In this document: in pieces, positions 60,797 to 60,871 of the stretch
Layout of the letters: each line of letters opens with the position of its first letter
Position numbering within the stretch: the stretch's first letter is position 1
From: Escherichia phage vB_EcoM_IME392
Direction: 5' to 3' (one strand)
DNA: 64,000 bases
Sequence record: MH719082.1
Made by a program: the position numbers and the translations under genes
Notes under the pieces: model-generated
Told to the model about the DNA's origin: nothing
Database searches by the model: none
What the model saw: only the letters and a program-made list of their open reading frames with translations

Positions 60797-60871
60797 ATCT
60801 TAATATCTCCTAATATCTCCTAAGACTATTCACATAGAGCACCATCAGATGCTCTATAGGAATAACCTCTA

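Follow-up and report, generated by a model that had tools for sequence, protein, structure and literature searches.

Why is a small phage gene preceded by two Shine-Dalgarno (SD) sequences set head to tail, and what, if anything, does the second one do? The question is posed by the leader of the gene at 60437-60796 in Escherichia phage vB_EcoM_IME392, of which we analysed a stretch of 64,000 nucleotides (sequence record MH719082.1; hereafter the window). An earlier note had reported a tandem duplicated SD element before this gene, and that element is indeed present, exact on the minus strand and beyond chance by simulation. The 10-nt sequence GGAGATATTA occurs at 60820-60811 and again, letter for letter, at 60810-60801. 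The minus-strand leader has the order ...AATAGTCTTA, GGAGATATTA, GGAGATATTA, AGAT, ATG or, read over a longer distance, ...GTGAATAGTCTTA GGAGATATTA GGAGATATTA AGAT ATG TTT GAG.... The repeat had been described as an exact 10-bp one lying immediately before the ATG; the first part of that description stands and the second has to be amended, as AGAT (60800-60797) intervenes. Measured to the ATG (60796-60794), the spacing is 10 nt for the proximal GGAG and 20 nt for the distal one. The elements of the locus are these:

60437 to 60796, minus strand: the 119-aa gene, a conserved phage ORFan (pN/pS ~0.12).
60797 to 60800, minus strand: AGAT spacer from the repeat to the start codon, by reading of the sequence.
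60801 to 60810, minus strand: proximal unit GGAGATATTA, the working SD (AGGAG) with its 10-nt spacer, at the same distance from the ATG in one-, two- and three-copy alleles.
60811 to 60820, minus strand: distal (extra) unit GGAGATATTA, its GGAG 20 nt from the ATG, with no start codon before the next copy.
60801 to 60823, minus strand: the whole period-10 tract, TTA plus two units, from TRF, an exact-run scan and simulation.
60822 to 60869, minus strand: a 21-bp RNA hairpin of 48 nt (10 bp, a 1x1 mismatch, 11 bp, tetraloop UGAU), from folding and conservation.
60871 to 60906, minus strand: a copy of a ~36-nt cassette, CCGCTCTTTY-N6-TCGAAAGGCTGTTAAAS-TGT, which begins directly after the stop of the upstream 77-aa gene.

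The intergenic gap measures 110 nt from the ATG back to the 77-aa gene (stop 60907-60909), and it is filled in order by the cassette (60906-60871), the hairpin (60869-60822), one unpaired A and the repeat. TRF reported the repeat at 60801-60823 with period 10, 2.3 copies and a 100% match, the tract reaching 60823 through three extra nucleotides (TTA) ahead of the first unit. It was the sole exact tandem run of its class (period 7-30, at least two copies plus 3 nt) in a scan of the 64-kb window, and 100 first-order Markov simulations produced a mean of 0.04 such runs per window and a maximum of 1. Taken together, the scan and the simulations indicate that the duplication is real and is not an accident of composition. 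The 10-mer GGAGATATTA is not over-represented elsewhere in the window.

The gene behind this leader is kept in 11 related loci at a pN/pS of about 0.12, and this conservation under purifying selection argues that the ORF at 60437..60796 is a genuine gene. An in-frame TAA at 60802-60800 blocks its extension upstream. The 119-aa family is small (28 representatives at E <= 1e-3 among 1.8 billion proteins), with G73, E75, D86 and Y92 as its invariant residues, and the protein had no PHROG, Pfam or PDB match by sequence. A confident AlphaFold (AF2) model (pLDDT 87) shows two helices, a sheet of four strands and a long helix at the C terminus; Foldseek found no significant PDB match for it and, in BFVD, one unnamed viral model at TM 0.60. 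Elsewhere in the window, genes for a tail sheath, several tailspikes, a terminase and a helicase mark the phage as a myovirus. The target, an early-region gene, sits in a block of small minus-strand ORFans. Not far upstream, at 61151-61717 on the minus strand, a 188-aa protein with an N-terminal LysM-like domain is encoded among small early-type ORFans, away from the structural and lysis genes; its matches to endolysin/transglycosylase families cover only residues 4-114.

Which of the two SD copies can a ribosome use? In each unit AGGAG pairs with ACCUCCUUA at the 3' end of 16S rRNA over 5 bp at -7.3 kcal/mol, equally in both copies. The proximal copy lies within the spacing of functional SDs (roughly 5-10 nt, tolerated to about 13), at its long end. 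The distal copy falls outside that range, 20 nt from the ATG and with no ATG, GTG or TTG between, and throughout the alleles described below the extra copies lie 20 or 30 nt from the ATG, each lacking a start codon of its own. The spacing term of the RBS calculator, with the constants of Salis 2009, penalises a spacing of 10 nt about 3x and one of 20 nt about 650x. This penalty at 20 nt, together with the lack of a start codon between the copies, implies that only the proximal copy can initiate at this ATG. We surveyed 91 provisional gene starts in the window and found GGAG cores mostly 5-8 nt from the start; the 10-nt spacer of the target gene is unusually long for this phage, and none of the surveyed starts belonged to a second gene with two GGAG cores one unit apart. 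The sequence TTAGGAGAAATTATG recurs as a typical RBS before several small genes (3197-3206, 53688-53697, 59450-59459, minus strand), and distant homologues of the target gene also use a TTAGGAGAAATTATG-type RBS, with a 5-nt spacer (L003 80-92).

The history of the repeat can be read from related leaders. The only close match in the phage collection is Escherichia phage EP_H11 (OP688485.1, 111 kb), which is 98.2% identical in this region; it too has two copies, and the comparison says little by itself because the whole intergenic region is identical to that of the window. EP_H11 has been grouped with phages that bear SP-15-like DNA polymerase-UDG fusions and a putative thymidine-hypermodification gene (bioRxiv 10.1101/2025.03.26.645540). 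Apart from EP_H11, the collection contained one distant Pseudomonas phage whose homologue overlaps the upstream gene and has no leader. A protein search returned one 90% cluster of eight members and two homologues of ~67% identity, and we fetched the DNA and read the leaders for all of them. The resulting sample, drawn from different sequencing projects, comprises nine close leaders (the window included) and two distant ones:

One copy: L002 (ENA, 113-kb contig), L005, L006, L008 and L009, five of the nine close leaders.
Two copies: the window, EP_H11 and L011 (SRA contig), three of the nine.
Three copies: L010, one of the nine.
A single, different SD (TTAGGAGAGATTATG, 5-nt spacer): L003 and L004, of ~67% identity.
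No leader, another gene abutting: L007.

No more alleles came from a peptide-pattern scan or two DNA-pattern scans of viral_contigs, from a DNA-pattern scan of metagenome_contigs or from megablast against E. coli genomes.

Among the close leaders the alleles differ by exact multiples of 10 nt and their flanks are unchanged. Outside the repeat, a one-copy and a three-copy allele (L005 and L010) share every base of the leader and of the gene's first 134 nt, and the contexts with a 77-aa and with a 106-aa upstream neighbour each include one- and two-copy alleles; in these comparisons copy number does not follow the flanking haplotype. A neighbour-joining tree of the gene, rooted on the two ~67% homologues and analysed by Sankoff parsimony, places one copy at the root and needs at least three changes, a count that recombination among these mosaic genomes could inflate as a number of independent slippage events. 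Bootstrapping gave three events in 171, four in 23 and two in 6 of 200 replicates. The one-copy state is probably ancestral. With three states in nine sequences, and an adjacent gene that differs by no more than 6% within the close clade, these leaders show a repeat locus that changes much faster than the average site. The SD-ATG spacer of the close group is 5 nt longer than in the ~67% homologues with their TTAGGAGAGATTATG; this extra length and the variable repeat together suggest that the leader is a hotspot for small indels in that group. The three-copy contig also lacks the usual 56-aa downstream gene (L010 460-1140).

We conclude that the doubled GGAGATATTA is almost certainly one allele of a slippage-driven variable-number tandem repeat, with exact head-to-tail copies beyond chance and whole-unit polymorphism between unchanged flanks. 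The earlier suggestion of a recent slippage duplication is borne out by one, two and three copies in otherwise identical leaders, by a one-copy ancestor on parsimony and by at least three changes. The idea of a conserved repeat fared otherwise once homologous leaders were compared, since the second copy is missing from five of the nine close relatives and from the distant homologues. The sequence around the unit offers a route to the duplication. In the single-copy form, CTTA-GGAGATA-TTA-AGATATG, TTA, extended to TTAGGA/TTAAGA, stands on both sides of the unit, and flanking microhomology of this sort is a classic substrate for slippage duplication. The first duplication would have arisen by replication slippage between these TTA/TTAGGA-TTAAGA microhomologies around the single unit. 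Once two copies were present, their 13 nt of exact homology would make expansion and contraction much easier, which fits the coexistence of one, two and three copies.

What the copy number might do depends on what lies upstream of it. The hairpin at 60869-60822 has a predicted dG of -24.1 kcal/mol (z = -5.7 against shuffles), its 3' base lies 1 nt ahead of the first GGAG, and it is kept by every relative that has an intergenic leader. The changes within it include C-G to U.G, U.G to U-A, U.G to C-G and one double-sided swap of A-U to U-A; several conserved pairs are G.U, and this makes the structure meaningful only for RNA of the minus strand. No Rfam family matched it at any threshold. With 21 bp and a single 1x1 mismatch, it has the nearly continuous double-stranded length (~20-22 bp) that RNase III recognises, and its role may be to stabilise the mRNA at its 5' end or to serve as a site for RNase III. 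We rejected several other identities for it. As an intrinsic terminator it is followed by AGGAGAUAUUA, with no U-tract, and the terminator scan was silent; as a repeated genomic element it has one further exact TATAGAGCAT, at 62856-62865, which is coding sequence with no hairpin. An 11-codon uORF from an ATG in its 3' arm (ATGGTGCTCTATGTG...) was likewise set aside: it lacks an SD, the stem buries its start codon, and its ATG stands in a different relation to the main ORF in L003 and L004.

Upstream of the hairpin is the cassette, of which the window holds 12 copies at no more than two mismatches in a 14-nt core, all on the minus strand and inside two minus-strand gene blocks; at no more than three mismatches there are 18 matches against 4.5 expected. 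The 14-nt cores lie as follows:

2863-2876, 3849-3862, 5314-5327 and 6841-6854, minus strand.
7024-7037, 7082-7095, 7687-7700 and 8711-8724, minus strand.
55683-55696, 56758-56771, 59477-59490 and 60874-60887, minus strand.

The copy at 8711-8724 is in a divergent gap before the first leftward gene, 4 nt ahead of its GGAGG, and two other copies are 58 nt apart with no ORF between them. This divergent-gap copy and this pair argue for a promoter or 5' element and against a role as terminator only. A promoter scan of 59500-62500 and an alignment of the 12 copies revealed no sigma70-like -35/-10 in the cassette, and it contains no stable conserved stem, its folds being weak and heterogeneous; a stable hairpin lies downstream of two of the 12 copies. 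The upstream gene differs between relatives exactly at the cassette, two metagenomic contigs break there, and in one relative (L007) an extra gene follows it. The cassette is a candidate phage-specific promoter or 5' element and a candidate mosaic or recombination junction; its sequence was absent from the literature that we searched.

Other features of the cassette-bearing regions deserve mention in their own right. The gene inserted in L007 between the cassette and the 119-aa homologue encodes 200 aa, and the homologue uses a different SD there, GAGGTGACTTATG (L007 848-1500). A ~2.4-kb ORF-poor stretch of the window (4680-7060) contains genes for tRNA-Met (5645-5720, minus strand) and tRNA-Arg(UCU) (6190-6265, minus strand) together with four cassette copies (5327, 6854, 7037, 7095), and it may encode further non-coding RNAs. 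The copy at 7687-7700 is the only other one with strong structure downstream: on its 3' side, at about 7640-7686 on the minus strand, two adjacent hairpins (CGGAGGUAAUUCCUCCG and then a longer one) total -24.9 kcal/mol (z = -6.3), and the first of them sequesters a GGAGG.

How, then, would an additional SD unit between the hairpin and the working SD affect the gene? The reading that we prefer, and regard as on balance probable when taken as a whole, combines a slippage repeat, a working proximal SD and extra copies that modestly raise initiation. The effect itself is the part that we hold less firmly, as possible and at best finely balanced. The proximal copy would serve as the ribosome-binding site, and the extra copies would insert 10 or 20 nt of A/U-rich and probably single-stranded RNA, with orphan SDs, between the hairpin and that site. 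As in the standby-site model, the added single-stranded distance would relieve steric and unfolding costs and initiation would rise modestly, by about 1.5-5x for two copies against one. The repeat would then act as a coarse and reversible dosage dial, not as a conserved enhancer.

Among the structural differences between the alleles only one is robust, and it is the quantity on which such an effect would depend, the single-stranded distance from hairpin to SD. The working SD is 1, 11 or 21 nt from the hairpin in the one-, two- and three-copy alleles, and 13 nt from it in the ~67% homologues, close to the 11 nt of the two-copy allele. We re-implemented the standby equations from PMC3936740 (As = 15 + P + D - H, with a distortion penalty of quadratic form and hairpin unfolding as an option), and they predict an initiation gain of 1.5-5.3x for a second copy and of up to 4-22x for a third. 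The size of the predicted gain depends on the 5' end of the mRNA: it shrinks to 1.5x when a single-stranded segment of 15 nt or more precedes the hairpin, and the upper values hold when transcription begins close to the cassette's 3' end, leaving no more than 5 nt on the 5' side of the hairpin; removal of the hairpin by RNase III would also change the prediction. In synthetic leaders, the length of the proximal binding site changes translation ~4-fold per 4 nt (PMC3936740), and in an E. coli 5'-UTR library multiple SDs raise translation on average (Evfratov et al. 2017, PMC5389652). In MFE folds, the 10-20 nt that the extra units add are either free or only weakly paired, but ensemble predictions vary with fragment length. 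The predicted differences in SD/AUG accessibility between alleles go further and change sign with fragment length, so we made no use of RNA folding to predict allele-specific occlusion of the SD or AUG. A modest positive effect on translation is plausible on this modelling. The predicted weakest allele, that with one copy, is the commonest, at five of nine close leaders, and any benefit of extra copies is for this reason not a general one.

The strongest competitor is that the repeat is a selectively neutral indel polymorphism with essentially equal output from all alleles, which we think quite possible. The proximal SD keeps its geometry to the ATG in every allele, one copy is the most frequent state, all three states are found side by side in almost identical backgrounds, predictions of accessibility follow no consistent trend, and the standby model itself allows only 1.5x when a long single-stranded 5' segment is present. 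Neutrality has more difficulty with the one-copy leader, where the hairpin ends 1 nt from the SD, a geometry that measurably lowers initiation in synthetic leaders (PMC3936740), and with the measurable effects of extra SD motifs in E. coli libraries (PMC5389652).

A more ambitious version of the dosage idea treats the tract as a hypermutable 'contingency' rheostat that, inside phage populations, steps back and forth through one, two, three or more copies and sets the dose of an early ORFan according to the host, and that forms with the cassette and the hairpin a mobile expression module, analogous to and distinct from the PeSLs of T4. With each step the working SD would come to lie one unit farther from a stabiliser hairpin at the 5' terminus, and the optimal level of the protein would differ between hosts. 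We consider this improbable.

It is less probable still that the orphan distal SD lowers expression, either as a decoy that traps 30S subunits at a distance from which they could not initiate or by pairing with coding sequence. Its GGAG does bind the anti-SD as well as the proximal one (-7.3 kcal/mol) under a prohibitive spacing penalty, and SD/AUG accessibility is reduced in some folds of the two-copy leader. These fold differences are not robust to fragment length, however, and the published data point the other way: additional SDs on average increase translation (PMC5389652), and upstream standby binding generally feeds initiation (PMC3936740).

An effect at the level of DNA is also conceivable and seems to us very unlikely. 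The 10-bp unit corresponds to one helical turn, and changes in copy number would shift the distance, though not the helical phase, from the cassette or the palindrome (a possible operator) to the gene start and might so tune transcription instead of translation; the inner stem of the hairpin is a perfect 9-bp palindrome that could be a site for a dimeric binding protein, and a repeated promoter-like cassette is located 50 bp upstream. Nevertheless, the repeat is downstream of all candidate promoter elements, in a position where spacing to the ATG is not known to play a part in transcription. The G.U pairs of the outer stem and its pair-preserving substitutions, moreover, make sense only in minus-strand RNA.

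The earlier note had offered a translational enhancer as the alternative to recent slippage, and as a conserved or designed feature of the leader this idea has little left to recommend it. Two perfect SD cores do stand in an A/U-rich leader, and engineered tandem RBS leaders can boost output (PMC9723656). In the engineered cases each RBS needs its own start codon and an SD-SD distance of 15-21 nt (PMC9723656), while here the second copy has no start codon, is 20 nt from the ATG and is often missing. The single SD in five of nine close relatives and in both ~67% homologues (L003, L004), and the lack of any other gene in the window with a doubled SD, largely refute a selected dual-SD enhancer.

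The remaining suspicion, that the repeat is an artefact of sequencing or assembly, seems to us extremely unlikely: assembly of short tandem repeats can go wrong, and this phage group may carry hypermodified thymidine (bioRxiv 10.1101/2025.03.26.645540), a modification that can disturb library preparation, but the two-copy allele is common to three independent assemblies and the three-copy allele occurs in a fourth, the differences are exact multiples of 10 nt and, by our reasoning, periodic tracts of 23-33 nt contain no repeated 31-mers and are resolved by k=31 graphs.

Alone, the repeat is a small and ordinary mutational feature. Its value lies in the natural allelic series that it provides, with one, two or three SD units between an unchanged RBS and a conserved 21-bp hairpin. 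Biophysical models of standby sites vary the hairpin-to-SD distance artificially, and a natural phage leader could be used to test them. The alleles also bear on whether phages tune the dosage of early genes with short repeats. For annotation, the doubled SD should be taken neither as a mistake nor as an additional start. Of the two features, the repeated cassette probably tells more about regulation in this poorly characterised and possibly thymidine-hypermodified phage group.

Several known systems invite comparison. At contingency (phase-variable) loci, for example in Haemophilus and Neisseria, slippage in promoter or 5' repeats alters copy number and with it expression. The present tract is similar in that a repeat occupies the regulatory region just before a start codon, and in that its copy number varies between near-identical genomes with more than one change event inferred. 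It differs in having one to three copies of a 10-nt unit, where contingency loci typically have many copies of units of 1-8 nt, and in leaving the working SD and its spacing untouched, so that neither a reading frame nor a promoter spacer changes; those loci are bacterial, and this one belongs to a lytic phage. We have not classed the tract as a phase-variable locus: its units are few, reading frame and SD-ATG spacing stay as they are, and the inferred recurrence, at least three events, is only suggestive of a high and reversible mutation rate and is confounded by recombination.

The cassette, for its part, resembles in role the PeSLs of T4-like phages (Arbiol et al. 2010, PMC2839356; Comeau et al. 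2014, PMC4122927). Both are short repeated intergenic elements in ORFan-rich regions, oriented with the genes, and both bound insertions or replacements of genes between relatives. The cassette departs from PeSLs in having neither a sigma70 promoter nor a G/C-rich terminator stem-loop; its sequence is different, and its host genome is that of a non-T4 myovirus.

Leaders with multiple SDs (PMC5389652; PMC9723656) share with this one the presence of more than one anti-SD-complementary motif. Engineered multi-RBS leaders have an in-frame start codon for each SD and are effective only at SD-SD distances of 15-21 nt (PMC9723656); in the present leader only 10 nt separate the SDs, and the extra one lacks a start codon. 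A further parallel is with the standby sites of the de Smit and van Duin model (Espah Borujeni et al. 2014, PMC3936740; PMC5934652), in which a stable hairpin likewise stands directly before the SD and the single-stranded length varies. Those examples are engineered leaders or the MS2 coat cistron, whereas here the variation is natural and comes in quanta of 10 nt, each with an SD of its own. On the leaders compared here, we describe the repeat as a naturally occurring example of a familiar class, the slippage-driven variable-number tandem repeat in a 5' leader, and one that by coincidence varies the parameter studied in work on standby sites.
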